From assembly GCA_963778665.1 (NCBI GenBank), contig CAVZVG010000003.1, positions 192,813 through 256,812 of the forward strand: 64,000 nucleotides of DNA, in the 5' to 3' direction. Position 1 is the stretch's first letter; each line of letters opens with the position of its first letter. Origin of the DNA: an uncultured Gammaproteobacteria bacterium (lineage in GTDB: Bacteria; Pseudomonadota; Gammaproteobacteria; JBBQDK01). The notes under the pieces were generated by a model, which made no database searches, was not told the origin of the DNA, and worked only from the letters and a program-made list of their open reading frames with translations. Shown piece after piece: positions 16,909 through 42,102 of the stretch. Position numbers and translations under genes: made by a program.

Positions 16909-16913
16909 GCGAG

Positions 16914-17180: not shown

Positions 17181-17187
17181 TCTTGCG

Positions 17188-17914: not shown

Positions 17915-17953
17915 GCAAGCCTTCCCTGAGGCGGCGACCACGAATCCGCAACG

Positions 17954-17985: not shown

Positions 17986-18008
17986 ATAGGGTAATTTGGT
18001 AATCGTCA

Positions 18009-18260
18009 ATGCCTGAAAGAACTCTAATAATTCTTGTAGGATTAATCTTGTCAGTGTTAGTTGGTTGCGTCATGATCAGGAATTGGCCGAAATCTGGGAA
18101 GATGGGTGTAAACACAAAAACAGTACATTGCCCTCGTTGTGGATTGAAAGCGCCGATGGTAAGAAAGCCAAAGAACCTAAGACAGATACTTTGGGGTGGA
18201 TGGACTTGCGAAGGTTGTAATTGTGAGTTCGATAAGTACGGAAATGAAGTTAATACATAA
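18009..18260 (+). CDS. cassette 16: membrane-anchored zinc-ribbon protein (83 aa, CPRC..CEGC)
   Basis: ORF track entry; N-terminal TM helix plus two CxxC pairs. Confidence 0.5.
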   Translation: MPERTLIILVGLILSVLVGCVMIRNWPKSGKMGVNTKTVHCPRCGLKAPMVRKPKNLRQILWGGWTCEGCNCEFDKYGNEVNT

Positions 18261-18329
18261 CAAGTCATTCGAGTACGCCCCTTCGAGGCCGGACGCGCTG
18301 ACGCGCGTCACACAAATCCGAACTTATGC
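18256..18329 (+). repeat. attC 16 with mutated core (R'' CATAACA; R' CTTATGC instead of GTTATG)
   Basis: Paralogue of attC 3. The conserved G of GTT is replaced by C. Confidence 0.55.
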
Positions 18330-18347
18330 ATCAAGGAGAAGATTCGA

Positions 18348-18743
18348 TTGAAATCACATCCGGTAATCACGCAGATTGAAAGGGCGGATAAAGCAATTGT
18401 TGCTGAAGATTTCGATACGCTTCTCGATATTTATACTGATGATGCAGTACTGGTTGTTGAGCCAGGAAGAAATGCTGTTGGAAAAGATGACATTAGAAAA
18501 GCATTTGAGGCCATAGCGGTATATTTTAGAAATGGGCTGCATGTTGAACAAGATGGCTTGGAGATTCTTGAGTCAGGTAATACTGCCTTAGTATTGGCAA
18601 ATACAATTCTATTAGCGCCTAATTACCCTGCAATAACTCGTAAAGCGACATACGTATTTATTAAGTCCTCTAACGGTAATTGGCTTTGTTCAATAGACAA
18701 TTCATATGGTCATGAAATTATTGGTACAGGAAATAATGCATAA
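18348..18743 (+). CDS. cassette 17: NTF2-like/SnoaL-like (DUF4440-type) protein, TTG start with AAGGAG RBS
   Basis: ..DFDTLLDIYTDDAVLVVEPGRNAVGKDDIRKAFEAI.. is the SnoaL-like fold pattern. Confidence 0.5.
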   Translation: MKSHPVITQIERADKAIVAEDFDTLLDIYTDDAVLVVEPGRNAVGKDDIRKAFEAIAVYFRNGLHVEQDGLEILESGNTALVLANTILLAPNYPAITRKATYVFIKSSNGNWLCSIDNSYGHEIIGTGNNA

Positions 18744-18809
18744 CAAGTCTCTCGTTTGGACGCAAACTACGCTGCGCTTCGTTTGCGCTGAACAGCTTCA
18801 ACGTTAGAC
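18739..18809 (+). repeat. attC 17 (R'' CATAACA; R' GTTAGAC 18803)
   Basis: R''/R' pair read directly. Confidence 0.7.
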
Positions 18810-18853
18810 ATCACAAGCGCGCACATTACTACCCCACACTGATCGGAGGCCCC

Positions 18854-19279
18854 ATGAACGCCACAAAGATCAAAGTAGGTCAATTGGGTATCGACTACAT
18901 CGTGGATGGCTCTCACACGGAGAGTCTCGGAATGTTCGAACTGACAGTGCCTCCAGGATCGAACGTTCCACCGCCGCATAGTCACACCAACAACGACGAA
19001 TGCGTGTATGTCCTCGCCGGAACACTTCGGTACTCGGTCGGAGCTGAGACGCGCGATCTGACAGTAGGGCAAGCGATGAGCACGCCAAGAGGCGCGGTTC
19101 ACGCTTTCTCGAACCCCTTCGCCGAGACCGCTCGCGCCTTGATCGTCATGTCTCCGGACATCGGAGCCCAGTACTTCAAGGACGTCGCTGCGGTGATCAA
19201 TGCCGGAGGGCCTCCGGACAAGGCCGCCCTGGTCTCGGTGATGTCCAGGTATGGGCTTGTCCCGGCTGCGCCGGCGTGA
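18854..19279 (+). CDS. cassette 18: cupin-domain protein (141 aa; GC ~60%)
   Basis: Cupin motifs PPHSHTNNDECVYVLAGT and GAVHAF. Confidence 0.55.
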   Translation: MNATKIKVGQLGIDYIVDGSHTESLGMFELTVPPGSNVPPPHSHTNNDECVYVLAGTLRYSVGAETRDLTVGQAMSTPRGAVHAFSNPFAETARALIVMSPDIGAQYFKDVAAVINAGGPPDKAALVSVMSRYGLVPAAPA

Positions 19280-19349
19280 CCACACCCAAGCCTTCCATCG
19301 AGCGGACGTCCTCCGGCAAGCTTCGTTTGCTTGCCGCCGCCGCTCATGT
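19279..19349 (+). repeat. attC 18 remnant (degenerate; homologous to left half of attC 2)
   Basis: CAAGCCTTCCATCGAGCGG matches CAAGCTTCCATCGGAGCGG of attC 2. R'' is ACCACAC and R' is CTCATGT. Confidence 0.4.
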
Positions 19350-19387
19350 CGAATGTCAGGCCCAGCAAGTACAGAGAGGAGAGCGCA

Positions 19388-19732
19388 ATGAGCAACGAAC
19401 AGGTGGCGCCCGAGACGAAAGGCGTTACGGTGAAGTTACTTTCAACGGTTGATCTTGGCCCTGAGATCGAGGGCATGGCAGGGCGCCAACTTCGAATGCG
19501 TATGGTGACTATCGAGCCTGGAGGCGTCTTCGGCCCGATTCACGACCATAAAGACAGACCAGGCACTGTCTACATACTGCAAGGAACGATCACTGACCAT
19601 CGAAATGGAGTCGCTACGGACTATGGGCCGGGAGTGGGCTGGCCCGAGGATAGGAACACCACACACTGGCTTGAGAACAGAGGAACGATTCCGGCGGTGG
19701 AGATCTCGGTCGATATAGTGAGGCATGAGTAA
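19388..19732 (+). CDS. cassette 19: cupin-domain protein (114 aa from ATG 19388, RBS AGAGGAGAG)
   Basis: GPIHDHKDRPGTVYILQGT..NTTHWLENRG matches the cupin_2 pattern. Confidence 0.55.
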   Translation: MSNEQVAPETKGVTVKLLSTVDLGPEIEGMAGRQLRMRMVTIEPGGVFGPIHDHKDRPGTVYILQGTITDHRNGVATDYGPGVGWPEDRNTTHWLENRGTIPAVEISVDIVRHE

Positions 19733-19762
19733 GCTCAGGCCCGACATCTGACACGGTCGGGT

Positions 19763-19867
19763 CTAACACACGGATCAACCGGACGCGATAGTCGCTACGC
19801 TTTGGTGGACACCCTGAACTAATGATTCAGGAGTGTCAAAGATGCCGAAGCCAGGCGTTGGTTGTTT
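19763..19867 (+). repeat. attC 19 (R'' TCTAACA; R' GTTGGTT/GTTGTTT)
   Basis: Paralogue of the attC-like sequence at 22322-22440 (shared TTTGGTGGACACCYTGAA..GGAGTGTMAAGATGCC). Confidence 0.55.
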
Positions 19868-19885
19868 TAAATTGGGAATAAATTC

Positions 19886-20284
19886 ATGAAGAAATTAAAA
19901 AATACAGCGTACAACGCATTGGTTATAGTAGAAGATATTGGCTTACTGGTCATAGCCATTTCGACAGTCATTGCAATGAGCTTTGAAATTGTATCTATGT
20001 TTGAAGCCATGAAGGTAACCTTGGCAGACCTTTTGTTACTTTTTATATACCTTGAGGTATTGGCAATGATTGGAATCTACCTTAAGTCAGGGCAGCTGCC
20101 TGTTCGTATGCCCCTTTACATTGCAATAGTAGCGGTGGCACGTTACATGATTCTTGATATGAAGAATTTGGATACATTAAGAGTTCTTGGTCTTTCAGGC
20201 GCAGTATTTATTCTTGCTGTATCTATTCTCGCTATTCGATATGGCCATATTAAATTCCCATATGATGATAAAGAAGACAGCTAA
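19886..20284 (+). CDS. psiE: cassette 20: phosphate-starvation-inducible protein PsiE family
   Basis: LFIYLEVLAMIGIYLKSGQLPVRMPLYIAIVAVARYMILD aligns with E. coli PsiE [41 protein letters not shown]. Confidence 0.65.
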   Translation: MKKLKNTAYNALVIVEDIGLLVIAISTVIAMSFEIVSMFEAMKVTLADLLLLFIYLEVLAMIGIYLKSGQLPVRMPLYIAIVAVARYMILDMKNLDTLRVLGLSGAVFILAVSILAIRYGHIKFPYDDKEDS

Positions 20285-20353
20285 CAAGCCAATCAAGTTT
20301 TCCTGTAATCAGCACGGGCTTGGACGTCACAAAAAGCATGGCGCCACTTATTT
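20280..20353 (+). repeat. attC remnant (R'' GCTAACAAGCCAATCAAG.. like attC 10; R' degenerate CTTATTT)
   Basis: Left end is identical to the attC 10 start. The right half is lost or degenerate. Confidence 0.35.
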
Positions 20354-20387
20354 ATGTCGGTTTGCCTTTTTTATATAGACGATATTC

Positions 20388-20561
20388 ATGCAAGCAGAGA
20401 AGCAGTTTCAATTGTTGGAATCAGTCCTTAACAAATGCAAGGGAGAGATTGGTAAAGATTTTGAAAGTTATAGAAATCATGTTTGCCGTATTGTTGATTT
20501 GTCAGGGTGTCCGGCGAGCGTTTCTGCATCGTTTCCCTTGCGGAATATTCTTTATCCGTAG
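20388..20561 (+). CDS. cassette 21: small ORF (57 aa, MQAEKQFQLLESVLNKCKGEIGKDFESYRNHVCRIVDLSGCP..)
   Basis: Below the ORF-track size cut-off; it is the only plausible ORF in this cassette. Confidence 0.3.
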   Translation: MQAEKQFQLLESVLNKCKGEIGKDFESYRNHVCRIVDLSGCPASVSASFPLRNILYP

Positions 20562-20638
20562 AAGGGAAATAATTTCAGTAATGGCAGTCACGCATACTGC
20601 ACGAAACTCCGCAAAGTGGCGCACGCCTTAGGACGCCC

Positions 20639-20722
20639 CATAACAAATCAGTCGAGTATGCCCGCCATTCTGGCGGGGCCCTACGCCTGCTTCGCAGGTG
20701 CGTCTCAATTCAATCGTTAATT
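20639..20722 (+). repeat. attC 21 (R'' CATAACA; R' GTTAATT 20716)
   Basis: R''/R' pair with an internal palindrome. Confidence 0.65.
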
Positions 20723-20746
20723 GCCAAAATAATGAAGCAATCCTAA

Positions 20747-21505
20747 ATGATTATGAAACTGCTCGAATTCCCACATTCTCACTATTGCGAAAAAGCGCGC
20801 TGGGCACTCGACTACAAAGGGATGCCATTTCAGGCCGTGGCAATTATGCCGGGGTTTCACATGATAACGGTACGCAAGTACGCTCCGGATACATCTGTTC
20901 CAGTGTTATTGGACCATGGTGAAGCAGTGCAAGGTTCGAGCGAAATCATAAACTACCTCGAACAGAGGCAGGCGTCATACCCTTTGAATCCTGCGGATGC
21001 TGATGAGCTCCGAGCATGCTTGGAAATAGAGCGCGCGATGGATGAAAGACTTGGGGAGAATATTCGTCAGGTTTTATACAATAGCCTGCTGGCTTACCCG
21101 GATTTTATCCGACATTGCTTTACCCATCCGATGTCCCGATTACGACAACTGATTTTCAGTCTCTTTTACCCGATTCTACGATACAAGATATATCAAACCT
21201 ATGTGATTTCCGCTGCGAAGGTAGAACAGGCGAGACGAGATTTCGATGTTGCCATGAGTGAAATAGAGAACATCCTTGAACAGAGACAGTATCTCGTTGG
21301 TGAGCGATTTACCCGTGCGGACTTGTCGGTAGCATCAATGCTCTCATTGCTTGTTATGCCGCCGGAGCATCCGTTTCCATGGCAAGAAATACCCGATCCG
21401 CAGGCAAGAGACTTTCTTGAAGGGTTTCAAGATCATCCCGTGTCTGAATGGGTTCGTAAAATGTATCGATGCCATCGATTGCGCGAGAGAGCACACTCCG
21501 AATGA
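20747..21505 (+). CDS. cassette 22: glutathione S-transferase family protein
   Basis: N-terminal thioredoxin-like GST fold (KLLEFPHSHYCEKARWALDYKGMPFQAV..VPVLLDHGE) followed by a helical GST C-terminal domain. Confidence 0.6.
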   Translation: MIMKLLEFPHSHYCEKARWALDYKGMPFQAVAIMPGFHMITVRKYAPDTSVPVLLDHGEAVQGSSEIINYLEQRQASYPLNPADADELRACLEIERAMDERLGENIRQVLYNSLLAYPDFIRHCFTHPMSRLRQLIFSLFYPILRYKIYQTYVISAAKVEQARRDFDVAMSEIENILEQRQYLVGERFTRADLSVASMLSLLVMPPEHPFPWQEIPDPQARDFLEGFQDHPVSEWVRKMYRCHRLRERAHSE

Positions 21506-21520
21506 TTAGCCATTCAGCCG

Positions 21521-21578
21521 GCGCGTCAAGTCATTCGCTTAGCTCATTGGGACGCTCAAAAGCTGCGCATTTATCGCG
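21521..21578 (+). repeat. attC 22 remnant (paralogue of attC 16; R'' decayed to GCGTCAA, R' CTTATGC)
   Basis: ..CAAGTCATTCG..CTTATGCGAACC mirrors attC 16. Confidence 0.4.
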
Positions 21579-21622
21579 ACCCTTATGCGAACCTTGGTCG
21601 TCGTGAGAACATCGACCCGATC

Positions 21623-22309
21623 ATGAGACTTCACAAGCTGGCTGACGGAATCTGGGTGCTGGACGGCAACCCCATTTCTTTTGTTACTTTCCCATACGAA
21701 ATACGCTCTACCGTTATCGAAATAGGGGGAGGTGAGCTGTTTATTCATTCTCCGGTGCAATTATCCGCAGTGGATCTATTGAAGACGCTGCCTGGTCAGG
21801 TGAAATACATCGTTTCGCCAAATAAGCTCCACAGTCTGTTTCTTGGGGATTGGAAAAAGGCGTTTCCGGAAGCCAAGCTTTACGCGCCGCCTGGCTTGAA
21901 AGCCAAGCGTCCGAACTTATCGTTCTATAAGGAGCTTGCAGATGAACCGGAACCGGAGTGGCGGGAAGTATTAAAGCAAAAGATAGTTCGAGGAAGTTGG
22001 TTCATGTCGGAAGTCGTTTTTTTTCACGCACCATCGGAAACCCTGATCCTTGGGGATCTGATAGAAAACCACAACCCACTGAGATTTGGGTTGCTTCACC
22101 GAGCAATTGGTTCAGCGAACGCCATGCTCGCGCCAAACGGAACCACGCCGCGCAATTATCGATGGACGTTCTTTCGACGCAAAGAGGTTCGCGAGGATTT
22201 GCAAGAAATTATGAGCTGGAATGCCAAACGCGTTGTTATGTCCCACGGCCCGATCGTGGAAATCGGAGCGCAAGAGTTTTTGAGGAATGCATTTCAATGG
22301 GCGCTGTAG
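21623..22309 (+). CDS. cassette 23: DUF4336 family protein (metallo-beta-lactamase-like fold)
   Basis: ELFIHSPVQL..KYIVSPNKLHSLFLGDWKKAFPEAKLYAPPGL..EVVFFHAPSETLILGDL matches the DUF4336 pattern. Confidence 0.55.
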   Translation: MRLHKLADGIWVLDGNPISFVTFPYEIRSTVIEIGGGELFIHSPVQLSAVDLLKTLPGQVKYIVSPNKLHSLFLGDWKKAFPEAKLYAPPGLKAKRPNLSFYKELADEPEPEWREVLKQKIVRGSWFMSEVVFFHAPSETLILGDLIENHNPLRFGLLHRAIGSANAMLAPNGTTPRNYRWTFFRRKEVREDLQEIMSWNAKRVVMSHGPIVEIGAQEFLRNAFQWAL

Positions 22310-22321
22310 GTCAAATGCGCC

Positions 22322-22440
22322 GCCTGACAAGCAGTTGCAGTGGAGCGTGATAGTTCCTACGGTTTGGTGGACACCTTGAATTGGCGGCTCTGGAGTGTAA
22401 AGATGCCTAAGCAAGGACCCGGAACAACGTATAAGTACAG
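22322..22440 (+). repeat. attC-like remnant (paralogue of attC 19; cores degenerate: CCTGACA .. CGTATAAG)
   Basis: Sequence homology to 19790-19850. Confidence 0.4.
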
Positions 22441-22506
22441 TGAGAAGTTTAAAGCAACCGCAACCATCGACCGCCGAAGAATGCGAATATTGGATTCAGA
22501 GAAACA

Positions 22507-22881
22507 ATGAAATACATCGGCACGGACTTTATTCATATAAGCATCCTGGACACACGATCTGTGCTGGTGGAAGCAATGGATGCAGTTGAAATCGATCTGG
22601 AGAAGGCAAAATACGCGAATCAACTGATCGAAAATGAGATGCCGGGTGACTATGGAATGATAATCGATAGAAAAGCCGATTACTCGATAGTGCCGGTCGA
22701 TGTATACAACATACTCAATAATATTGAGAAACTGAAGGCCATCGCAATCGTGACATATAATAAGAAGAGTTATTTTCCCATATCGATCGAGCAAAAATTA
22801 TATAAAGGCAAGTTGGAAGTGTTTCAATCGATACAACAGGCGCATGAATGGATCGATCAGGTATTGAATGAAACCATCTGA
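22507..22881 (+). CDS. cassette 24: hypothetical protein (124 aa, AT-rich)
   Basis: ORF track entry; no clear attC follows. Confidence 0.4.
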   Translation: MKYIGTDFIHISILDTRSVLVEAMDAVEIDLEKAKYANQLIENEMPGDYGMIIDRKADYSIVPVDVYNILNNIEKLKAIAIVTYNKKSYFPISIEQKLYKGKLEVFQSIQQAHEWIDQVLNETI

Positions 22882-23225
22882 CGATGCGGTTAAGACGCTG
22901 TATACGGACAACCAAGCTGACAATCGCATGCACACTGCCGGAACAAAGAATCGATAGTTTCATGCGCAGCTTTCTGCGCCCGGTGCTGCGGGTAGATATG
23001 TTTCAATCCCATCGCTGCATCGTATCGATGGTGGTTTTATCGGTGAAGCCGGAAGCATAACGATGCAATCCACCGGTCTGGGTTCGGTAGTCCGGCGATT
23101 TCAAGGGATATTACTAAAACACAGCAAGATCCGGGTTGCGGGCGAGTGCTTGATTCTCCATGATTGACTCGTAATGAGGTAAATACCTGTCAGTACGGGA
23201 AATGAAGTGTGAGAGGATTCGCAAG

Positions 23226-23369
23226 ATGTCTGCATTGCCTGAGAAATCGGCGATTATCATCGGAACAAGTTCCGGGATAGGGATTGTGGCCGCAAAGCGA
23301 TTCGCCCGGGAGATACCCGGCTTGCCGTACCGCACGCCGCCGATCGGCGCTCCCGGCCGACGGCAGTGA
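23226..23369 (+). pseudogene. short-chain dehydrogenase (SDR) gene remnant: N-terminal 27 aa then out-of-frame tail
   Basis: MSALPEKSAIIIGTSSGIGIVAAKRFAREIPG.. carries the TGxxxGIG Rossmann motif; the reading then degenerates and stops after 48 codons. Confidence 0.5.
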
Positions 23370-23373
23370 CTCC

Positions 23374-24267
23374 ATGAATCGCTCCGAATACATGATACAT
23401 GCGTCCAGCATCCCCATGGAAATCCAGATGTCCGACTATGATCGCATCGCCGCTGCAATTTCATTCATTGCCAGCCGGGTAGACCGGCAGCCCGGCTTGC
23501 AGGAAATCGCGGAACACTTGCATTTGAGTCCCTTTCACTTCCAGCGCCTGTTCTGCCGCTGGGCCGGCGTGACACCGAAAAGATTCCTGCAGGTGTTGAC
23601 CTTGGAACGCGCCAAACAATTACTGAGCGAATCGAGGCCGCTGCTTGACGTGTCGGACTCCCTGGGCTTGAGTAGCGGGTCGCGCCTGCATGACCATTTC
23701 GTTCATCTTGAAGCTGTTACACCGGGTGAGTTCAAGACGGGAGGCGCGGGTTTGACGATTGAATATGCAGTGCATGACACGCCTTTCGGAAGAGCATTCG
23801 TTGCCACCACCCCCAGAGGTGTCTGTAGTTTTGCGTTTCTGGATCATGCGGAAACCGATGATTGTCTGCCTGGCTTACAGAAGCGATGGCCGCATGCCAC
23901 GGTGCATGAAAATGCGAAAAGCACGCTTGCGGTAATCGATGCGATGTTCAGCCAGGAAAGTAAACCGGATCGCCCAGTGTCTTTGCACGTCTCCGGCACG
24001 AACTTTCAGGTCAGTGTGTGGAAGGCCTTGTTGCAGATACCTCCGGCGACAGTCGCGAGCTATTCTCAGGTGGCGACCGCCATCGGCCATCCGCGTGCCG
24101 CGAGAGCCGTAGGCCTGGCGGTAGGTGCAAACCCCGTCGCGTTCCTGATTCCCTGCCATCGTGTCATTCGGCAAAGCGGTAAGCTGGGAGGATATCGTTG
24201 GGGTGAGACACGGAAACAGGCGATCCATGCCTGGGAATCGGCAAGGTGCGAGCAAGCCGAGCCATGA
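23374..24267 (+). CDS. Ada-like bifunctional protein: AraC-type HTH regulator fused to O6-methylguanine-DNA methyltransferase
   Basis: HTH_AraC region (..LQEIAEHLHLSPFHFQRLFCRWAGVTPKRFLQVL..) plus MGMT active site IPCHRVI. The ORF track's start at 23284 overlaps the SDR remnant; ATG 23374 or 23416 is more likely. Confidence 0.75.
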   Translation: MNRSEYMIHASSIPMEIQMSDYDRIAAAISFIASRVDRQPGLQEIAEHLHLSPFHFQRLFCRWAGVTPKRFLQVLTLERAKQLLSESRPLLDVSDSLGLSSGSRLHDHFVHLEAVTPGEFKTGGAGLTIEYAVHDTPFGRAFVATTPRGVCSFAFLDHAETDDCLPGLQKRWPHATVHENAKSTLAVIDAMFSQESKPDRPVSLHVSGTNFQVSVWKALLQIPPATVASYSQVATAIGHPRAARAVGLAVGANPVAFLIPCHRVIRQSGKLGGYRWGETRKQAIHAWESARCEQAEP

Positions 24268-32428: not shown

Positions 32429-32458
32429 TCAAAAGAAATTTCATAGGATAATGCGCCC

Positions 32459-33217
32459 ATGCTCTATCAAGTCTGTCCAAGTTGCGGTTACCGGCGTCAG
32501 GCGCAGGACACGGCACCGGAGAGTGTCTGTCCGCGTTGCGGCTTGGTATTCGAAAAGTGGCTGCACCGGCGGTTGGCGGTAGAGGCGGAGCCGCAGACCG
32601 AGTCCGTGGATGAGCGACTCTCCAATGGCTGGTCCTGGCTGCGCGCCCGCCTGTTCGCGGTTCCCGAGTCGACGGATGCGTTGACATTCTACGGGCGGCT
32701 GCTTGTCTATCTGTTGTTCTTCGTCTGGGGTTGGTACTTCATCTGGCTGGACATGTCGTCCAATGCCATCGGTGCGTCCTTCATGCACAACATCGATCTG
32801 GTCTTTCATGAGGCCGGTCACGTGATCTTCCGGCCGTTCGGCTGGTTCATGACGGTGCTGGGCGGTTCGCTGATGCAGTTGATCGTTCCGGCGGTGGTGA
32901 CCGGCGCGTTCCTGTTTCGCGAAGGCAATGCCTTCGGCGCGTCCATCGGCCTGTGGTGGCTGGCGCAGAGCCTGATGGACCTGGCGCCGTACATCAACGA
33001 CGCACGCGCACAGCAACTGATGCTGCTCGGCGGTGGTACCGGCGCCGACATGCCGGGCATGCACGACTGGAACAATATCCTCGGTTATCTCGACCTGCTG
33101 GCGCAGGATCACCGCATCGCGGTTGTAACCGACGCACTCGGCGAAACGTTGATGCTGGTGGCGTTGCTCTGGGGTGGATGGCTGTTGTTGCTCATGTCCC
33201 GGCGACGGCGCGTGTGA
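32459..33217 (+). CDS. membrane protein with N-terminal zinc ribbon (CPSCG..CPRCG) and intramembrane HEAGH motif (putative metalloprotease)
   Basis: 252-aa ORF; two CxxC pairs, then 4-5 TM helices, one containing LVFHEAGHVIF. Confidence 0.5.
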   Translation: MLYQVCPSCGYRRQAQDTAPESVCPRCGLVFEKWLHRRLAVEAEPQTESVDERLSNGWSWLRARLFAVPESTDALTFYGRLLVYLLFFVWGWYFIWLDMSSNAIGASFMHNIDLVFHEAGHVIFRPFGWFMTVLGGSLMQLIVPAVVTGAFLFREGNAFGASIGLWWLAQSLMDLAPYINDARAQQLMLLGGGTGADMPGMHDWNNILGYLDLLAQDHRIAVVTDALGETLMLVALLWGGWLLLLMSRRRRV

Positions 33218-33493: not shown

Positions 33494-33508
33494 TGGCACA
33501 AGTGTTGC
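33494..33508 (+). promoter_or_regulatory. sigma-54 (-24/-12) promoter TGGCAC-N5-TTGC upstream of fmdA
   Basis: TGGCACaagtgTTGCC read directly; the -12 element lies 70 bp upstream of the fmdA ATG. Confidence 0.55.
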
Positions 33509-33577
33509 CCTCTCGGAATCAGTATGCGGTGGAATCTTTCCATCTCAGAGTCACCAACACGCCGATGAGGATACGCC

Positions 33578-34806
33578 ATGCCAAAGACACTGATCAAAGT
33601 TGACCTGAACAAAACACCGGAGGAGCAGGGCGATGTTCTGCATAATCGCTGGCATCCCGACATCCCGATGGTGGCCATGGTCAAGCCGGGTGACGAGTTC
33701 CGCGTCGAGTGCATCGACTGGACCGGCGGTCAGATCAATAACGACAACAGTGCCAACGATATTCGCGATGTCGATCTGACCAAGGTGCATTACCTGAGCG
33801 GACCCATCGGCGTGGAAGGCGCCGAGCCGGGCGACCTGCTGGTCGTGGATATTCTCGATATCGGCACCCTGGCCGGATCGGAATGGGGCTTCACCGGACT
33901 TTTCGCCAAGGAAAACGGCGGCGGTTTCCTCACCGAGCACTATCCTGATGCGCGCAAGGCATGCTGGGATTTCCACGGCATATACACCACCTCGCGGCAC
34001 ATACCCGGATGTGGAATTCGCCGGCATCATGCATCCGGGACTGATCGGCTGTCTGCCATCCAAGGAGTTGCTGGATACCTGGAACAAGCGCGAGGCGGAA
34101 CTGATCGCCACCGATCCGGATCGTGTGCCGCCCTTGGCCGCGCCACCCTATGCGGACACCGCGCTGATGGGTCGATTGACCGGCGAGGCGGCGAAGATCG
34201 CGGCGCGGAAGGGGCGCGTACCGTGCCGCCGCGCGAACATGGCGGCAATTGCGACATCAAGAACCTTACCCGCGGTTCGAAGGTTTATTTCCCTGTCTAC
34301 GTGAAGAACGCCGGTCTGTCGATGGGCGATATTCACTTTTCCCAGGGCGATGGCGAGATCAGTTTCTGCGGCGCCATCGAGATGGCCGGATGGATCGATA
34401 TTCATGTCGAGATGATCAAGGGCGGCATGAGCAAGTACGGCGTGGTCAATCCGATCTTCCAGCCCAGTCCCGATGGAGCCGCACTATACCAACCATCTTA
34501 TTTTCGAAGGCATATCGGTCGATGAGGACGGCAAGCAATATTATCTGGATGCGCATGTCGCTTATCGACGCGCCTGCCTCAACGCCATCGAGTATCATGA
34601 AGAAATTCGGCTACAGCGGCGAACAAGCCTACGCGATTCTCGGTACGGCGCCGGTGGAAGGTCACATCAGCGGCATCGTCGACATTCCCAATGCCTGCGC
34701 GACGCTGTGGTTGCCGACCGAAATCTTCGACTTCGATATCAAGCTCAATGCCAATGGTCCGACCAAATACCTGGCCGGCGATGTCGATCTGGCGGTGACC
34801 AAGTGA
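33578..34806 (+). pseudogene. fmdA: formamidase FmdA (acetamidase/formamidase family), reading frame broken by 4 single-base indels
   Basis: MPKTLIKVDLNKTPEEQGDVLHNRWHPDIPMVAMVKPGDEFRVECIDWTGGQI.. matches Methylophilus FmdA throughout. Frame changes occur at ~34005 (+t), ~34200 (-1), ~34472 (+g) and ~34597 (+c). ORF pieces are 33578-34525, 33948-34304, 34473-34829 and 34249-34806. Confidence 0.8.
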
Positions 34807-34919
34807 ACAACGTCGTCAATAAGAGATGATTGCGGGGAGGCGGACCCGGCAGGCCGGTTCGGCCTGCCGGGTCTACGAATCCCCGATACGATGACGGCCG
34901 AAGAACGAGGAGAGGTGTT

Positions 34920-35234
34920 ATGCCTATATATGAATATGCTTGCAACGTGTGCGGTCCGTTCAGTCAGTTGCGCAGGCTCGCGGAATATGAGCAGCCCGCG
35001 CTGTGCCCGCATTGTCAAACGCAGTCGCCGCGGATCATCTCCGCTCCGCGTCTTGCGCTCATGGAAGTGGGGAACCGCACGGCCTGGGAGCGCAATGAAC
35101 GCAGCGCCCATGAACCGCGCCAATCGCAACCGCATCGCCACCATCCGGGTTGCGGCCATGATCACGGGCAGACCAAAAAGCAACCGGTGAAGCGCGAAGT
35201 CGGGCGTGGCAGACCCTGGATGCTGGGCCATTGA
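34920..35234 (+). CDS. fmdB: FmdB family zinc-ribbon regulatory protein
   Basis: MPIYEYACNVCGPFSQLRRL..CPHCQ is the FmdB zinc-ribbon signature. Confidence 0.75.
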   Translation: MPIYEYACNVCGPFSQLRRLAEYEQPALCPHCQTQSPRIISAPRLALMEVGNRTAWERNERSAHEPRQSQPHRHHPGCGHDHGQTKKQPVKREVGRGRPWMLGH

Positions 35235-35813
35235 CCATGTCCTGATCGTTGCGCATGTAACGAGATCTGCGGATGCAGATCGAGACGAAGCGGCCGAAAG
35301 GCCGCTTTTTTATTTTGGTCTTCCGGAAAGCTGTGTGCGTGATGCTGTCTTTGACGGGTCCGGCATGTAACGCTGTCGATATATGCATGCCGCGCTGTGC
35401 GCTGTGCTGTTGTCGGGGCGGTCATGCTGCGTTTTTGTTCGTCTTCGTGCTGGTGATCGTATTGGCGCACCGTAATGGCCGTCATTCTTTTCGGTAGGCA
35501 CCGACATGATGCGCAATCCCCGAAAGAGGCACGCGTTATTTTGTTGCAAGTGCGCGGGTATGAATGACCAAATCAGAGCATGCTGCAAAAAATGCTTTAA
35601 ACACCGTGTCGTGCGTACGTACTTATGTTCTCTATCAGTGCGCGCGACAGGTCCTGAAGATTTTTCTCCCTAAACCGAATGCGGGCACACTCTTTGCAAA
35701 ATTGCTCGGTAGCGCGAGCAATTGTGCTCGCGCAGGCTGGCATCAGATGTTGTGTCGCGAACAGTAGCAATGAGTTGACTGCCGCGACAGTGACGCTGAT
35801 ATCGTAACGGGGG

Positions 35814-37061
35814 TTGCACACTATGAATTGCATTAAGAGTAACTGGCGGAAGCGCGCACTGCCTGTTGTGATGGGCGCGGTACTGGCAGCAACACTATCG
35901 ACTTCACAGGCTGCCGGTCCGGCAACGGCAACGGTCAATACGACCGGCCTGGCGGTCACCGACGATACCGTCACTGTCGGCATTCTCCACTCTCTGACCG
36001 GCACCATGGCGATCAGTGAAACCGGTGCCCAGGAGGCCGAGAAACTCGCCATCGCTCAGATCAACGCCATGGGCGGCGTGCTCGGTCGCCAGGTCAAGTT
36101 CATCCAGGAGGACGGTGCCAGCGACTGGCCGACCTTCGCGGAAAAAGCCAAGAAGCTGCTCGAGAACGACCATGTGGCCGCCATCATGGGCTGCTGGACC
36201 TCCGCTTCGCGCAAGGCGGTGCTGCCGGTGCTGGAACGCGACAACGGTCTGCTTTACTACCCGACCTTCTATGAAGGTCTGGAACAGTCCAAGAACGTCA
36301 TCTATACCGGCCAGGAGGCGACGCAACAGGTGTTCGCCGGTCTCGACTGGGTGGCCAAGACCAAGGATGCCAAGACCTTCTACCTGATCGGTTCGGACTA
36401 CATCTGGCCCCGCACCACCATGAAGCTTGCCCGCAAGTACATCGAGACGGTGTTGCACGGCAAGATCGTGGGTGAGGAATACGCCGCTCTGGGCAGCACC
36501 CAGTTCGGTTCGACCATCAACAAGATTCGTCTGAAGAAACCCGACGTGATCTACGCGGCTGTGGTGGGTGGTTCCAACGTGGCATGGTTCAAACAGCTCA
36601 AGGCCGCCGGTATCACCGGCAAGAAGCAGACGCTGCTGACCCTGTCGGTCACCGAGGATGAGGCCCACGGTATCGGTGGTGAAAACCTGCTCGGTTTCTA
36701 CTCCGCCATGAAGTACTTCCAGTCCCTGGATACGCCGGAGAACAAGACGTTCGTGGCCGAGTTCAAGAAGATGTGGGGTGCCGATGCGCCGATCGGCGAC
36801 GTGACCCAGGCCGCCTATGAAGGTCCTTGGTTGTGGAAGGCGGCGGTCGAGAAGGCCGGCAGCTTCGATACCGACAAGGTCGTGAAGGCCGAAGAGAGCG
36901 GCACCATTACTTTCGATGCACCGGAAGGCATGGTCTATCTCGAGCCCAATCATCACTTGAAGACACGGTTGCGGATCGGCGAATGGCGTGCCGACGGTCA
37001 GGCGGATATCGTCTACACCTCCGACTACATCATGCCTAACCCGTTCCCCAAGGGCTATTGA
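35814..37061 (+). CDS. urtA: urea/short-chain-amide ABC transporter substrate-binding protein (UrtA/FmdD-like)
   Basis: TVGILHSLTGTMAISETGAQEAEKLAIAQINAMGGVLGRQV..GCWTSASRKAVLPV..GSDYIWPRTT.. aligns along the whole length of UrtA. Confidence 0.85.
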   Translation: MHTMNCIKSNWRKRALPVVMGAVLAATLSTSQAAGPATATVNTTGLAVTDDTVTVGILHSLTGTMAISETGAQEAEKLAIAQINAMGGVLGRQVKFIQEDGASDWPTFAEKAKKLLENDHVAAIMGCWTSASRKAVLPVLERDNGLLYYPTFYEGLEQSKNVIYTGQEATQQVFAGLDWVAKTKDAKTFYLIGSDYIWPRTTMKLARKYIETVLHGKIVGEEYAALGSTQFGSTINKIRLKKPDVIYAAVVGGSNVAWFKQLKAAGITGKKQTLLTLSVTEDEAHGIGGENLLGFYSAMKYFQSLDTPENKTFVAEFKKMWGADAPIGDVTQAAYEGPWLWKAAVEKAGSFDTDKVVKAEESGTITFDAPEGMVYLEPNHHLKTRLRIGEWRADGQADIVYTSDYIMPNPFPKGY

Positions 37062-37148
37062 TCCCAGTATGACGTCTGCTCCCCGGGGTTGCTGAACCCC
37101 GGGGACAGCCTGGCGATGCTGCACTGTATATAGAACTGGAGAATCCTT

Positions 37149-38072
37149 ATGTTTGGCTATTCGCTATCGGATTTAGGATCGATTGTGGTGATGCAGGGCT
37201 TTTCCGGCCTGAGTCTCTTCAGCGTCTTATTGTTGATGGCGCTCGGACTGGCGATCATCTTCGGCCAGATGGGCGTGATCAATATGGCCCACGGCGAATT
37301 CATGACCATCGGCGCCTACACCATCTACATGATGGGCAAAATGACCGATCAATATTTTCCCGCATTCACTGCCCTACTATTTCTTCTTCGCGATCGCCGT
37401 GGCGTTCGCGATTGCCTTCGTGGTCGGCTATCTCGTCGAGTTTCTGATGATACGCCACCTCTACAAGCGACCTCTGGATCGCTGTTGGCGACCTGGGGAT
37501 TGAGTCTGATCATGCAGCAGGTATTCCGCACCGTCTTCGGCGGTCGCGAAGTCAGCCCGCATCTGCCCGATTGGCTGATGGGTTCGTGGTCGGCATCGCC
37601 CACCATCGACATCCCCATCAACGGCATGGTGGTGATGGTCGTTACCATCGTGGTGACCGGCGCGGTGATCGGGTTCCTGTACAAGTCACGCTGGGGTCTC
37701 AAGGTCCGGGCGACGACCCAGAACCGGGTCATGGCCGGATCCGTCGGCATCAACACCAAAATGGTTGACCGCATGACCTTCGCCGTCGGCTGTGGCATCG
37801 CCGGTATCGCCGGCGCCGCATTCACCACCATCGCTTCCACCGGTCCGACCAGCGGCTCCCAGTACATCGTGGATACCTTCCTGGTGGTGGTGTTCGGCGG
37901 CGCAACCAGCCTGATGGGTGCGGTGGCGTCGGCCTTCTCCATCGCCCAGACGCAGTCGATTCTCACCTTCTTCCTGACCAATGCCATGGGCAAGGTGGTG
38001 ACCCTGCTGATCGTTATCGTGATCCTGATGCTGCGGCCCGAGGGCCTGTTCGCCAGCAAGGTTCGGAAGTAA
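37149..38072 (+). pseudogene. urtB: urea ABC transporter permease UrtB with two frameshifts (~37365 and ~37480)
   Basis: Conserved LPYYFFFAIAVAFAIAFVVGYLVEFLMIRHLYKRPLD is readable only in an alternate frame, between in-frame HGEFMTIGAYTIYMMG.. and ..LLATWGLSLIMQQ.. Confidence 0.7.
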
Positions 38073-38085
38073 TGCAAGTGCAACT

Positions 38086-39331
38086 GTGGGAGAGCCGATG
38101 AATACGTTCTATGAAAGATGGTTGGGTGGTCGGCAGGGTGCCCTCGGGATCGCGATCCTGTCACTGTTTATCTTCGCGGTCATGCCCATGTGGCTGGATA
38201 TCTTCCGTCTCAACCTGGTGGGGAAATATCTCACCTATGCCTTCGCCGCCGTCAGTCTGGTGATGGTGTGGGGTTATGGCGGTGTGCTCAGCCTCGGCCA
38301 GGGTATCTTCTTCGGTCTCGGCGGCTACTGCATGGCGATGTTCCTGAAGCTCGAGGCATCGGACCTGACGAGCACCGCGCACCAGACCACGCCGGGGATT
38401 CCGGACTTCATGGACTGGAACCAGATCACCCATCTGCCGCTGTTCTGGGAACCGTTCCACAGCCTCACCTTCACCATCGTGATGATCTTCGTGGTGCCGT
38501 CGGTATTCGCCTATATCATCGGCGCGGCCATGTTCAAGCGCCGGGTGGGTGGTGTGTACTTCTCCATCATCACCCAGGCGATCGCGTCGATTCTGACCAT
38601 CCTGATCGTGGGTCAACAGGGTTACACGGGCGGCATCAACGGCATCACCGACCTCAAGACCCTGCACGGTTGGAACATCAACACGACATCGGCGAAATAC
38701 ATTCTCTACTTCGTCAACGGTGCGCTGCTGATCGGCGTCATCATGGCGTGCCGCTACGTGTTGTCCTCCAAGCTCGGGCGTCTGCTCCTGGCGATGCGCG
38801 ACAAGGAGGATCGGGTCCGGTTCTCCGGCTACGATGTGTCGAACTTCAAGATCTTCATCTTCTGCCTGGGCGCGATGATCTCCGCCATCGGCGGCGCCAT
38901 GTTCACCCTCCAGGTCGGGTTCATGTCGCCTTCCTTCGTCGGCATCGTGCCCTCCATCGAGATGGTGATCTTCGCCGCGGTCGGCGGGCGCATGTCGCTG
39001 ATCGGGGCGGTGTTCGGCACGCTGCTGGTGAACTACGGCAAAACCGCATTCTCGGAGTCGTTCCCGGCACTGTGGCTGTTCCTGATGGGCGCCCTGTTCA
39101 TCGCCGTGGTGATGTTCTTCCCCAACGGCCTTGCCGGACTCTATGAGCAGTACGGCAGTCGTTTTGCCAAGCTGTTGCCGAAGCGTTTTGCGAAAGCCAA
39201 TACCGGCGCTGTGCCGCCGCCGGAGGACAGTACGCCACCGCAAGCTGGCGGTGGTCCACAAGCTGGCCGAAAAGCCTGTCGCCGATGAACCGGTACCCGA
39301 TGAAGATCTGCGCACCAGGAGGCCTGCATGA
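38086..39331 (+). CDS. urtC: urea ABC transporter permease UrtC; probable frameshift near 39240 at the 3' end
   Basis: Typical UrtC TM core. Alternate-frame ORF 39131-39331 ends in ATGA, overlapping the urtD start (translational coupling), which suggests it is the true C-terminus. Confidence 0.7.
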
Positions 39332-40101
39332 ACGCCGCAAACGCAAGCGAAGTCGCAAGTGAAAAGAAGGAATTCATTCTCACCGTTGAAGACCTGACCG
39401 TATCCTTCGACGGTTTCAAGGCGGTCGACGGACTCAATCTGTACGTGGACAAGAATGAACTGCGGGTGGTGATCGGTCCCAACGGCGCGGGTAAGACCAC
39501 GGTGTTGGACCTGATCTGCGGCAAGACCAAGGCGACCGCCGGCTCGATTCAATTCAAAGGCAAGGAACTGACCAAGCTGGCGGAGCACGAAATCGTGCGC
39601 GCCGGGGTGGGGCGTAAATTCCAGACGCCGTCGATCTATGAGAATCTCACGGTATTCCAGAATCTGGAGATCTCCTTTCCGCGCGGTCGCGGTGTGTTCG
39701 GTTGCCTGACCTTTCGCCGCACGCCGGATGTGGTGGAACGCGTGCAACTGATCGCCGAGGAGATTCAACTCCAGGATCATCTGGAAATGGATGCGGCACT
39801 GCTCAGTCACGGTCAGAAGCAATGGCTGGAGATCGGCATGCTGCTCATGCAGGACCCGGAACTGTTGATGCTCGACGAACCGGTCGCCGGCATGAGCGTC
39901 AAGGAACGCGAGCAGACCGCGGATCTGCTGAATCGCATCTGCAAGGGCAGGTCGGTGATCGTCATCGAGCATGACATGGAATTCGTCAAGCGCATCGCGC
40001 ACAAGGTCACGGTATTGCATCAGGGCAGGATCCTGGCGGAAGGCAGCATGGAACACGTGCAGGCCGACGAGAAGGTCATCGAAGTCTATTTGGGTCACTA
40101 A
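39328..40101 (+). CDS. urtD: urea ABC transporter ATP-binding protein UrtD
   Basis: Walker A GPNGAGKTT, signature and Walker B LLMLDEP; intact. Confidence 0.85.
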   Translation: MNAANASEVASEKKEFILTVEDLTVSFDGFKAVDGLNLYVDKNELRVVIGPNGAGKTTVLDLICGKTKATAGSIQFKGKELTKLAEHEIVRAGVGRKFQTPSIYENLTVFQNLEISFPRGRGVFGCLTFRRTPDVVERVQLIAEEIQLQDHLEMDAALLSHGQKQWLEIGMLLMQDPELLMLDEPVAGMSVKEREQTADLLNRICKGRSVIVIEHDMEFVKRIAHKVTVLHQGRILAEGSMEHVQADEKVIEVYLGH

Positions 40102-40122
40102 CCGCGACGCGGGAGGCACGTT

Positions 40123-40814
40123 ATGTTTCAAGTATCCGGTTTACATGTCAGTTACGGTCAAAGCGAGGTCATACACGGTCTCGACCTGACGGCCAACAAT
40201 AATGAAACCATCGCAGTGATGGGCCGCAACGGTATGGGCAAGACCACGCTGTTCAAGGCATTGATGGGCGTTCTGCCGAGCGGTGCCGGTTCGATCACGA
40301 TCGATGGCAACGATGTCACGAAGAAGGAAAACTACGAGCGCGTCGCGAGCGGCCTGGCCTACGTGCCGCAGGGCCGGATGATTTTCTCCAATTTAACGGT
40401 GCAGCGAAAACATCGAGACCGGCCTGGAGAATTCATCGTCGCGCCAGGTGCCGGACGATATCTACGCATTGTTCCCGGTATTGTTCGAGATGCGTCATCG
40501 CAAGGGCGGCAATCTGTCCGGCGGTCAGCAGCAGCAATTGGCCATTGCCCGAGCCCTGGTCACCGATCCCAAAGTGTTGCTGCTCGACGAGCCGACCGAA
40601 GGTATTCAGCCGTCGATCATCAAGGACATCGCCAAGGTCCTGCAATGAAATACGCAAGATGCGCGACATCACCATCATCGTCTCCGAGCAGGTGCTGAGC
40701 TTCGCACTTGCCATCGCCGACCGTTTGCTGGTGATCGACAAGGGCCGCTTTATCCACGAGGACCTGCGCGCAAATGTCGACACGGCCAAGATCTCCGGCT
40801 ATCTCTCGGTGTGA
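40123..40814 (+). pseudogene. urtE: urea ABC transporter ATP-binding protein UrtE with two frameshifts (~40400 and ~40640)
   Basis: N-terminus GRNGMGKTT is in the ORF 40123 frame. [43 protein letters not shown] is in the ORF 40448 frame. The C-terminus is in the ORF 40545 frame; the second shift is an extra c in ctgCaatg. Confidence 0.7.
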
Positions 40815-40871
40815 ATCCTGTTGATCGGATCGAGTGCCGGATGGGTGTTTTATGCCAAGAGCGACAAAAAT

Positions 40872-40998
40872 AAAAAAAAACCGTCAACCGCCAAGGACGC
40901 CAAGAGCGCCAAGATCTTTCCTCTTGAATTTCAAAACAGATTTTCTTGGCGTCCTTAGCGTCCTTGGCGGTTCAAGTAATTAATCAGGGTTTCCTTAA
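40872..40998. repeat. MITE-like element, family B (copy B2; core 40888-40970)
   Basis: CCGCCAAGGACGCCAAGAGCGCCAAGA ..62 bp.. TCTTGGCGTCCTTAGCGTCCTTGGCGG plus shared flank TTCAAGTAATTAATCAGGGTTTCCTTAA. Lies in the amiE upstream region. Confidence 0.75.
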
Positions 40999-41046
40999 TT
41001 GGAAGACAGCTGACATGAAAACCATTTGCAGACAGAGGAGACGAAC

Positions 41047-42102
41047 ATGAGACACGGTGATATTTCATCCAGCAAAGACTGCGTCGGTGTGGCGGTGGTC
41101 AATTACAAGATGCCCCGCCTGCATACCAAGGCGGAGGTTCTGGACAATGCCCGCAAGATCGCCGATATGATCGTCGGCATGAAGGTCGGCTTGCCGGGCA
41201 TGGATCTGGTGATTTTTCCCGAGTACAGCACGCACGGTATCATGTACGACACGCAGGAGATGTTCGATACCGCGGCGACCATTCCCGGCGAGGAGACGGA
41301 AATCTTCGCGGCGGCCTGCCGCAAGGCGAAAACCTGGGGTGTGTTCTCCTTGACCGGGGAGCGGCATGAGGAGCATCCAAAGAAGGTGCCCTACAACACG
41401 CTGATACTCATGAACGATCAGGGCGAGATCGTGCAGAAATACCGCAAGATCATGCCCTGGTGTCCGATCGAAGGCTGGTATCCCGGCGATACGACTTATG
41501 TTTCCGAAGGTCCGAAAGGACTGAAGATCAGTCTGATCATCTGCGACGACGGCAATTACCCGGAGATCTGGCGTGACTGCACCATGCGCGGCGCCGAGCT
41601 GGTGGTGCGTTGTCAGGGTTATATGTATCCGTCGAAGGATCAGCAGGTGATCGTCGCCAAGGCGATGGCCTGGATGAACAACTGTTATGTCGCCGTGGCC
41701 AATGCCAGCGGCTTCGATGGCGTGTATTCGTATTTCGGCCACTCGGCCATCGTCGGTTTCGACGGCCGGACCCTCGGCGAGTGCGGCGAAGAGGAGTACG
41801 GCATCCAGTATGCCGAGTTGTCGACCTCCATGATCCGTGATTCGCGCCGTAACGGCCAGTCGCAGAACCATCTCTATAAGCTGTTGCACCGCGGCTATAC
41901 CGGCAAGATCAATTCCGGTGAAGACGCGAACGGTGTCGCCGAATGCCCGTTCGAGTTCTATCGCACCTGGATAACCGATCCGAACAAGGCGCGTGAGAAC
42001 GTCGAGGCCATCACGCGCAGCACCGCGGGCGCGCCGGAATGTCCGATCGAGGGCATTCCCAACGGTTCGGTGGTGGAGTTCCGCAAGAGTGGTTCTTCGT
42101 AA
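41047..42102 (+). CDS. amiE: aliphatic amidase AmiE (nitrilase superfamily)
   Basis: [46 protein letters not shown].. matches Pseudomonas aeruginosa AmiE along its full length. Confidence 0.9.

Follow-up and report, generated by a model that had tools for sequence, protein, structure and literature searches.

The fmdCABDEF cluster of Methylophilus methylotrophus has a known layout (Wyborn et al. 1996; Mills et al. 1998, summarized in PMC10781810), with fmdA followed by fmdB and accompanied by a binding-protein-dependent transporter; FmdB is its putative regulator. In the blr0968–blr0973 cluster of Bradyrhizobium japonicum, the five genes of a Urt-like ABC transporter lie together with those for an 'AmiE' amidase and a PF03069 formamidase/acetamidase, and the substrate was inferred to be not urea but an amide, for example formamide or acetamide (PMC3098086). 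The Urt family itself has been tied to urea through its genomic association with urease (PMC3098086).

The locus described here lies at 33494–42102 of a 64 kb stretch of DNA (called the window here). Its elements are arranged in the order P1, fmdA, fmdB, terminator, P2, urtABCDE and amiE, where P1 and P2 are predicted σ54 sites (Table 1). Gene identities were assigned using NCBIfam and Pfam profiles. The fmdA–fmdB pair and the transporter are placed as in M. methylotrophus, but no FmdC porin gene was found, each of the five Urt-type subunits is annotated for the transporter, and amiE is appended. A gene for the FmdC outer-membrane porin was found neither in the locus nor among the scanned ORFs; the upstream ORF (32447–33217), which no Pfam or NCBIfam profile matches, resembles a membrane protein with a zinc ribbon and a HEAGH motif. 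The B. japonicum system has three components in common with the locus (the Urt-like transporter, an FmdA-family enzyme and a nitrilase-family aliphatic amidase), but it belongs to another phylum-level lineage and has another gene order, and the two are likened here by their descriptions. The locus is an ordinary, already-described type of cluster for the import and hydrolysis of formamide and small amides as a nitrogen source. Such fmdAB–Urt–amiE modules are widespread in Gammaproteobacteria and Betaproteobacteria, and the biology is that of a further instance under σ54 promoters.

Table 1. Features of the amide-utilization locus (positions in the window).
Feature	Position	Strand	Remarks
σ54 (-24/-12) promoter P1, TGGCACAAGTGTTGC	33494..33508	+	70 nt 5' of the fmdA ATG
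fmdA, FmdA/AmdA family formamidase	33578..34806	+	three frames; pieces match NF045496 and PF03069
fmdB, zinc-ribbon / RPWMISH-domain protein	34920..35234	+	intact; TIGR02605
intrinsic terminator-like hairpin	35287..35318	+	9-pair stem, then T run; closes the fmdA–fmdB unit
σ54-like site P2, GGGCACACTCTTTGC	35683..35697	+	1 mismatch; 117 nt 5' of urtA
urtA/fmdD-type periplasmic amide/urea-binding protein	35814..37061	+	intact; TIGR03407
urtB, permease	37149..38072	+	ORF open, 37-codon stretch out of frame; TIGR03409
urtC, permease	38098..39331	+	ORF as read stops at 39288; TIGR03408
urtD, ATPase	39328..40101	+	intact; TIGR03411
urtE, ATPase	40123..40814	+	three frames; TIGR03410
amiE, aliphatic amidase, nitrilase superfamily	41047..42102	+	intact; NF009802

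The sequence as given does not contain fmdA in a single uninterrupted frame, and its largest ORF scores 450.4 bits, under the NF045496 cutoff of 500. When three bases were removed and one was added, the resulting protein of 408 residues scored 789.6 bits and covered positions 2–406 of the 407 in the profile. FmdB scores 56.3 bits with TIGR02605 (cutoff 31.3) and 113.2 bits with NF053663, just under the cutoff of 120. The five transporter subunits are all present and adjacent, and each exceeds its curated equivalog or exception cutoff. UrtA does so narrowly (501.6 bits with TIGR03407; cutoff 492.75), UrtC and UrtD score 438.3 and 381.6 bits (cutoffs 296.2 and 304.1), UrtB rises from 319.7 bits as read to 388.7 bits after correction (cutoff 250.3), and UrtE passes only after correction (117.1 bits as read; 333.5 bits for the corrected protein of 229 residues; cutoff 285.8). 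Judged by these profiles (TIGR03407–TIGR03411), the subunits resemble the canonical, urease-linked UrtABCDE, UrtB and UrtE more clearly once corrected. AmiE matches NF009802 over its full length (720.7 bits; cutoff 427), and the Glu-Lys-Cys triad is present (E59 in FPEYS, K134 in RKIMPW and C166 in an ICDDG context).

We fetched 80 related genome loci. The fmdA–urtABCDE(–amiE) architecture recurs in most of them, and fmdA is present, next to the transporter, in 72 of the 80; in all 72 it is an unbroken ORF. The fmdA–fmdB pair with an adjacent amide/urea transporter, by which an fmd cluster is recognized, is found here, as it is in those 72 loci. Since this transporter subfamily adjoins fmdA in 72/80 relatives, amides are indicated as its main substrates. 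No urease genes or family matches were found among the scanned window ORFs. In the amide/urea scavenging proposed in the initial annotation, the case for urea is weaker than that for amides. Two syntenic loci, from uncultured Gammaproteobacteria (CAWEOA010000001.1 and JARRQJ010000027.1, called L001 and L002 here), have the same order, fmdA–(fmdB)–urtABCDE–amiE, at 82–87% nucleotide identity, with flanking genes unrelated to those in the window. UrtA is 90–95% identical to Halothiobacillus-like UrtA proteins, but only about 73–76% identical to UrtA from Methylophilaceae loci.

P1 is the sole zero-mismatch TGGCAC-N5-TTGC match in the window. It has the GG-N10-GC core and the upstream placement of a σ54 promoter, and sites of this kind are kept in relatives: L001 and L002 carry GG-N10-GC sites at equivalent positions, and in 300-nt upstream regions we found σ54 sites with at most one mismatch in 14 of the 72 loci with fmdA (5' of that gene) and in 19 of 80 loci 5' of urtA. 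Neither a σ54-activator domain nor an NtrC-type activator was found among the scanned window ORFs. Under nitrogen limitation, σ54 RNA polymerase would be expected to fire both P1 and P2, with an NtrC-type activator presumably encoded elsewhere. Transcription from P1 would cover fmdA and fmdB and end at the terminator, and transcription from P2 would cover urtABCDE and possibly continue into amiE. Formamide, other short-chain amides and perhaps urea would enter through the importer, which is of the Urt/FmdDEF type. FmdA would convert formamide to formate and ammonia, and AmiE would convert acetamide-like amides to the corresponding acid and ammonia. The family scores, the conservation of the promoters in relatives and the literature all support scavenging of short-chain amides, and possibly of urea, under σ54/nitrogen control, as first proposed from the sequence. 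The M. methylotrophus-type cluster is marked by induction with formamide and urea and by repression with ammonia; for the present locus, the σ54 motifs are indirect evidence of such control.

Half of the genes in this locus are out of frame as read. The frame breaks were located by codon-usage Viterbi decoding, which is homologue-free, by tblastn with the intact proteins of L002, and by nucleotide alignment to L001, L002 and a further relative, L081. The three independent methods were concordant. Four single-base indels lie in fmdA (+1 at 34004, −1 after 34205, +1 at 34472 and +1 at 34595), two in urtB (+1 at 37368 and −1 after 37479) and two in urtE (+1 at 40405 and +1 at 40646). urtC carries a single 7-nt insertion, AAGCTGG, at 39242–39248 near its 3' end. 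The numbers of breaks given in the initial annotation were thereby confirmed gene by gene, as was the uninterrupted state of urtA, urtD, fmdB and amiE. Its ratio of four frameshifted genes out of nine is correct in the four but not in the nine; the σ54 element is a promoter, so the locus has eight genes plus a promoter and the ratio is 4/8. The urtC insertion is a copy of sequence 16 nt downstream. A C-terminal comparison with L001 and L002 shows that its removal restores the conserved tail ...LRTRRPA and an ATGA overlap with urtD. This 7-nt duplication resembles a real mutation or a mis-join more than a base-calling slip.

The comparison with related strains, recommended when the breaks were first noticed, showed that no relative shares the indels. 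L001, L002 and L081 have none of those indels that fall within the part of the locus that each covers, and all genes are intact in L001, L002 and the syntenic loci of Halothiobacillus MAGs (L003/L004), unlike in the window. Each of the 80 metagenome matches to the corrected FmdA ran as a single segment over almost the whole length. A copy from the same species was sought (UrtA against genome contigs, UrtA against 5.8 billion proteins and corrected FmdA against metagenome contigs) but not found, the best matches being 95% identical in amino acids for UrtA and 90% for FmdA, and an exact-sequence look-up found no identical AmiE or UrtD protein on record. The indels could thus be checked only indirectly, from the assembled sequence and against relatives of which the best are 82–87% identical in DNA.

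We therefore looked at what the broken genes encode apart from the breaks. Deleting six bases and adding two gave full-length, stop-free FmdA (408 residues), UrtB (307 residues) and UrtE (229 residues) with normal ends, and all three then match their NCBIfam equivalog profiles from end to end and above cutoff. At sites with at least 97% invariance among 71–76 homologues, the corrected proteins keep 191 of 192 residues in FmdA, 162 of 163 in UrtB and 114 of 114 in UrtE, 467 of 469 in total. The corresponding counts for intact genes are 223/224 (urtA), 139/140 (urtD) and 198/198 (amiE); urtC keeps 178/178. Neutral decay at five substitutions per indel would have changed approximately 14 invariant sites, and at most two changes are observed (P ~7e-5). 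On the window's own branch, dN/dS is 0.07 for fmdA, 0.24 for urtB and 0.10 for urtE, compared with 0.08–0.14 for the intact genes. This branch is long (dS 0.13–0.85), so the test could hardly detect a very recent inactivation. The marks of a pseudogene are thus missing: there is no excess replacement at conserved sites, no stop after correction and no rise in dN/dS. Long-standing pseudogenes are ruled out by the invariant-site and dN/dS counts.

The indels of the locus have a counterpart elsewhere in the window. At 5.4–7.8 kb, a cluster covers all of ybiT but only part of the neighbouring deaD-like helicase gene, and it thus runs along the sequence regardless of where genes begin and end. The deaD-like gene has two indels of like kind, and ybiT, with 11 indels in 1.6 kb, nevertheless shares 79.8% identity with E. 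coli YbiT across 519 codons. The ybiT indels were resolved by a frameshift-aware dynamic-programming alignment, as standard tblastn merged the frames. Outside the low-GC cassette region at 10–23 kb, we located 22 indels in six genes, which roughly agrees with the approximately 25 in about eight genes first estimated for the window. They are strongly clustered; the approximately 22 kb from 42 to 64 kb contain none (P ~5e-4 under a uniform rate). Gene-wise clustering of this sort is also expected from true pseudogenes.

The spectrum of the indels is skewed. Insertions outnumber deletions by 7 to 2 in the locus and by 17 to 5 in the window (P = 0.008 against 1:1). The affected genes contain 17 homopolymer runs of at least four bases, and none of the eight single-base indels falls inside one. 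Homopolymer slippage, whether biological or of the 454/Ion/nanopore type, was rejected, as 0/8 single-base indels touch such a run. No shared motif, such as a methylation site, was evident around the indels on inspection.

We conclude that, most likely, the DNA of the organism lacks the nine indels that break the frames of fmdA, urtB, urtC and urtE, that these are localized base-calling, consensus or assembly errors, and that the same defect caused the ybiT and deaD-like indels. Errors are favoured because there is no substitutional decay, because the spectrum is insertion-biased and avoids homopolymers, and because the same defect appears in ybiT and deaD, which are unrelated conserved genes. 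Against this stand the clustering of the indels and the form of the urtC duplication; moreover, non-homopolymer insertion errors are unusual in polished modern assemblies. The initial annotation had left the choice between loss of the pathway and local indel errors open; our results favour errors and lend no support to loss. What is seen here, through localized sequence errors, is probably a functional module for scavenging nitrogen. As read, the sequence suggests a sulfur-oxidizer-like gammaproteobacterium that is losing the ability to scavenge nitrogen from formamide and other amides; most likely, it retains the whole pathway, and what needs polishing is the sequence. The case is chiefly a caution about reading broken genes as loss. 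Automated annotation would label at least fmdA, urtE, ybiT and the deaD-like gene as pseudogenes, and nitrogen metabolism would thus be understated.

Real indels would mean that fmdA, urtB, urtE and the tail of urtC were inactivated very recently, that AmiE, UrtA and UrtD are intact by chance, and that the pathway is being lost. The breaks are indeed concentrated in particular genes, over 20 further genes of the window being free of them, and they affect half of the genes in the locus. The 7-nt local duplication in urtC is a plausible replication or template-switch mutation, and loss would be unremarkable because the locus is accessory, its flanks not being syntenic with L001 and L002. This reading has to accommodate several independent indels per gene (four in fmdA) with conserved codons and frames otherwise preserved. 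Among spontaneous indels in bacteria, deletions usually predominate and slippage in runs is the usual driver, the opposite of the insertion bias and homopolymer avoidance seen here. It would also turn ybiT, a conserved translation factor gene, into a pseudogene with 11 indels that is still 80% identical to its E. coli homologue. We regard very recent inactivation as improbable.

If the indels were real and the genes were still expressed, recoding by programmed frameshifting, transcriptional slippage or RNA editing would be required. Its sole support is that purifying selection appears to act on the coding information in each frame segment. The sites have no slippery heptamers or homopolymer tracts and are conserved in no relative, and nine or more separate recoding events in differing contexts have no known precedent in bacteria. 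This explanation is extremely unlikely. Programmed frameshifting in particular was rejected on the lack of slippery sequences and of conservation of the sites in relatives. Scarcely more credible, and still highly improbable, is the proposal that the indels are real and that purifying selection was kept because the cell makes good the defects in its RNA or during translation, through a bacterial system for single-nucleotide deletion/insertion editing or multi-site recoding of fmdA, urtB, urtE, ybiT and deaD, or, in a weaker version, that a real, localized, indel-only mutational burst took place.

Among the possible sources of error, the sequence may be a consensus of a mixed population, in which the alleles of co-existing strains or paralogous copies were merged at the insertions. 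We consider this special case of an artefact rather unlikely. It does not account for the two deletions or for the insertions at 40405 and 40646, heterogeneity is without direct evidence, and third codon positions vary anyway, so that matching alleles are easily found by coincidence. In its favour, at four of the six single-base insertions the extra base and its neighbour correspond to two alternative alleles of relatives. The sequence reads CCCG at 34472 and at 34004, both synonymous third positions of Pro codons, TATC at 34595 (TAC in L001 and L081, TAT in L002) and ACTG at 37368 (ACG in L081, CTG in L001).

Profile searches placed eight genes at 33494–42102, all on the plus strand, where the initial annotation had counted nine; the correct count is eight genes plus promoters. 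The Urt-type ABC importer is complete, with UrtA, UrtB, UrtC, UrtD and UrtE all encoded, and AmiE carries the Glu59/Lys134/Cys166 triad. The frame breaks in this locus were positioned by three independent approaches, whose results differed by no more than a few bases. A codon-usage Viterbi path, trained on the long ORFs of the window and free of homologues, switched frame in fmdA at 33990/91, 34197/98, 34464/65 and 34593/94, and elsewhere in the locus at 37347/48, 37480/81, 39230/31, 40402/03 and 40641/42. In tblastn searches with the intact proteins of L002 (JARRQJ010000027.1, a syntenic gammaproteobacterial locus), FmdA and UrtE were each split over three frames. Nucleotide alignment to L002, to a second syntenic locus, L001 (CAWEOA010000001.1), and to a partial related contig, L081, gave the single-base positions in the table; L081 covers part of fmdA, fmdB, urtA and the 5′ part of urtB. 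The breaks are truly present in the sequence as supplied. The earlier indel counts (four in fmdA, two in urtB, one in urtC and two in urtE) are thereby confirmed, and urtA, urtD, fmdB and amiE are intact, as had been listed. The urtB ORF remains open because its two indels compensate, leaving approximately 37 codons out of frame between them.

Features of the locus and of other parts of the window (+1 and −1, single-base insertion and deletion relative to relatives; cutoffs are curated NCBIfam bit scores)
Feature	Position	Strand	Remarks
DeaD-like DEAD-box helicase	4024–6148	−	adjoins ybiT, divergent; two insertions
ybiT, ABC-F translation factor	6202–7790	+	11 single-base indels (8 insertions, 3 deletions)
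Integron integrase	8786–10237	−	413 bits on TIGR02249, cutoff 265
Integron array	10300–23000	+	
Ada-like fusion	23281–24267	+	TIGR00589, 97.9 bits; PCHRV motif
256-aa ORF	32447–33217	+	GC3 0.80
Sigma54 −24/−12 element	33494–33508		TGGCACAAGTGTTGC
fmdA, FmdA-family formamidase	33578–34806	+	in pieces; +1 at 34004, −1 after 34205, +1 at 34472, +1 at 34595
fmdB, zinc-ribbon/RPWMISH protein	34920–35234	+	
Terminator-like hairpin	35287–35308		
Sigma54-like site	35683–35697		GGGCACACTCTTTGC
urtA, Urt-type ABC importer	35814–37061	+	
urtB	37149–38072	+	+1 at 37368, −1 after 37479
urtC	38098–39288	+	as read; 7-nt insertion at 39242–39248
urtD	39328–40101	+	
urtE	40123–40814	+	in pieces; +1 at 40405, +1 at 40646
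amiE, aliphatic amidase	41047–42102	+	720.7 bits, cutoff 427

The origin of the indels was approached indirectly. An exact-sequence look-up found neither an identical AmiE nor an identical UrtD on record; the closest UrtA is 95 % identical, the closest FmdA 90 % and the closest DNA 82–87 %. With six bases removed and two added, FmdA (408 aa), UrtB (307 aa) and UrtE (229 aa) read through at full length with no internal stop. These corrected proteins scored 789.6, 388.7 and 333.5 bits, respectively; each score exceeds its curated cutoff, with an end-to-end match. At columns at least 97 % invariant among 71–76 homologues from the fetched loci, they keep 191/192 (FmdA), 162/163 (UrtB) and 114/114 (UrtE) residues; the values for urtA, urtC, urtD and amiE are 223/224, 178/178, 139/140 and 198/198. 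The corrected and intact proteins are thus indistinguishable in this respect. Bacterial mutation-accumulation studies give about ten substitutions per indel. Under a neutral model with five per indel, eight indels should be accompanied by approximately 14 replacements at invariant codons, and at most two were observed (P≈7×10−5); with ten per indel, P is approximately 2×10−10. Three-taxon Nei–Gojobori estimates on the window's own branch gave dN/dS values of 0.07 (fmdA), 0.24 (urtB) and 0.10 (urtE), with 0.08–0.14 for the intact genes; since this branch is long, these ratios exclude long-standing decay only. We consider a real, very recent inactivation unlikely. None of the locus indels is shared with relatives: fmdA is unbroken in all 72 related genome loci that have it, and each of the 80 metagenome hits covers nearly all of it in a single segment.

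The spectrum of the locus indels is wrong for spontaneous mutation, as seven of the nine are insertions and homopolymer runs are avoided (the affected genes contain 17 runs of four or more, and the eight single-base events all fall outside them). The Viterbi path showed further frame switching at 5.4–7.8 kb. The densest indel cluster of the window is in ybiT, as placed by frameshift-aware alignment to E. coli YbiT (PDB 9njf_Y). The aligned codons are 79.8 % identical to that protein over 519 positions, a conservation so high that ybiT is not an old pseudogene. In the neighbouring DeaD-like gene, two insertions at approximately 5419 and 5497 (78 nt apart, placed by codon usage only) leave the other 1.4 kb or so clean. 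As this gene is hit in part only, the cluster tracks a stretch of sequence and not a gene. Across the window outside the integron cassette array, there are 22 events in six genes, with 17 insertions against five deletions (P=0.008 versus 1:1). No frame switch was found at 42–64 kb, which is about 22 kb and some 20 genes (P≈5×10−4 for a uniform rate). The source of the indels is patchy along the window, not uniform. The clean genes at 42000–64000 include those for an OYE-type oxidoreductase, an HD-domain protein, a DEAD-box helicase, an MFS transporter, pirin, a LysR regulator, a D-Ala-D-Ala carboxypeptidase and SelO.

Because the indels are patchy, insertion-rich, outside homopolymers and without accompanying substitutions, localised errors in consensus building or base calling (e.g. 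in low-coverage or unpolished stretches) would explain them best, and a sequence artefact is in our judgement quite likely. Four insertions are also suggestive of a consensus from mixed templates, since they resemble two alleles side by side: TATC at 34595 (TAC or TAT in relatives), ACTG at 37368 (ACG or CTG in relatives) and CCCG at two synonymous Pro codons at 34004 and 34472. Between the pathway loss and local errors offered initially, the four frameshifted genes of eight most probably reflect sequence quality, not pathway erosion. A read check is needed before fmdA, urtB, urtC, urtE, ybiT and deaD are annotated as pseudogenes.

The urtC event is different in kind from the single-base events. 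The inserted AAGCTGG is a copy of sequence 16 nt downstream. Without it, urtC regains the conserved tail ...VVHKLAEK...LRTRRPA and ends in an ATGA overlap with urtD, as in relatives; with it (region 39221–39269), the poorly conserved C-terminal tail alone is replaced and the ATGA coupling is gone. Among the indels, this duplication is the likeliest to be a genuine mutation.

A perfect sigma54 element forms the left edge of the locus, 70 nt before the fmdA start codon (ATG); it is the sole zero-mismatch match across the 64 kb. Together with the strong hairpin 3′ of fmdB and the second sigma54-like site upstream of urtA, it points to fmdAB and urtABCDE as separate transcription units, the latter possibly also including amiE. 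Among relatives, 14 of 72 have a sigma54-type site (at most one mismatch) in the 300 nt preceding fmdA, and 19 of 80 have one in the 300 nt preceding urtA; over the whole window, such sites occur at approximately 0.016 per 300 nt.

The reading of the locus as an amide/urea scavenging system is sound, and systems of this kind are already known. Of the 80 related genome loci, most have fmdA-(fmdB)-urtABCDE(-amiE) or permutations of it, and 11 match the gene order of the window exactly. In B. japonicum, a Urt-like transporter adjoins a PF03069 enzyme and an AmiE-type amidase, and the cluster was read as an amide, not a urea, system (PMC3098086). Nitrogen limitation would induce sigma54-dependent transcription, formamide, acetamide and perhaps urea would be taken up by high-affinity ABC transport, and hydrolysis by FmdA and AmiE would yield ammonia. 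The window ORFs scanned yielded no activator, urease or FmdC porin. L001 and L002 share only the fmdA-to-amiE block with the window (33566–42064 compared); their flanks are unrelated to its own (RecQ and DEAD-box genes on one side, an OYE gene on the other). The module thus occurs in different genomic contexts and, judging from these comparisons, may be mobile between genomes.

The urtE–amiE spacer (40816–41022) has insertions specific to the window relative to L001 and L002, one of which, CTTGGCGTCCTTAGCGTCCTTGGCGG (40945–40979), is 35 nt long and contains an internal repeat. Directly upstream of the sigma54 promoter, the 256-aa ORF shows good codon bias and encodes a CxxC...CxxC zinc ribbon at the N terminus, along with hydrophobic segments and an HEAGH motif; it matched no Pfam or NCBIfam family. 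In M. methylotrophus this position is held by the fmdC porin gene, whereas the ORF is not a porin. The window also contains a chromosomal integron, in which the integrase is followed by approximately 13 kb of low-GC DNA (43–50 %) with many small same-strand ORFs between attC-like repeats (e.g. 12145–12225/15207–15287 and 11024–11082/13039–13097). At the GC-rich end of the cassette region lies an Ada-like AraC-type regulator fused to an O6-methylguanine-DNA methyltransferase.
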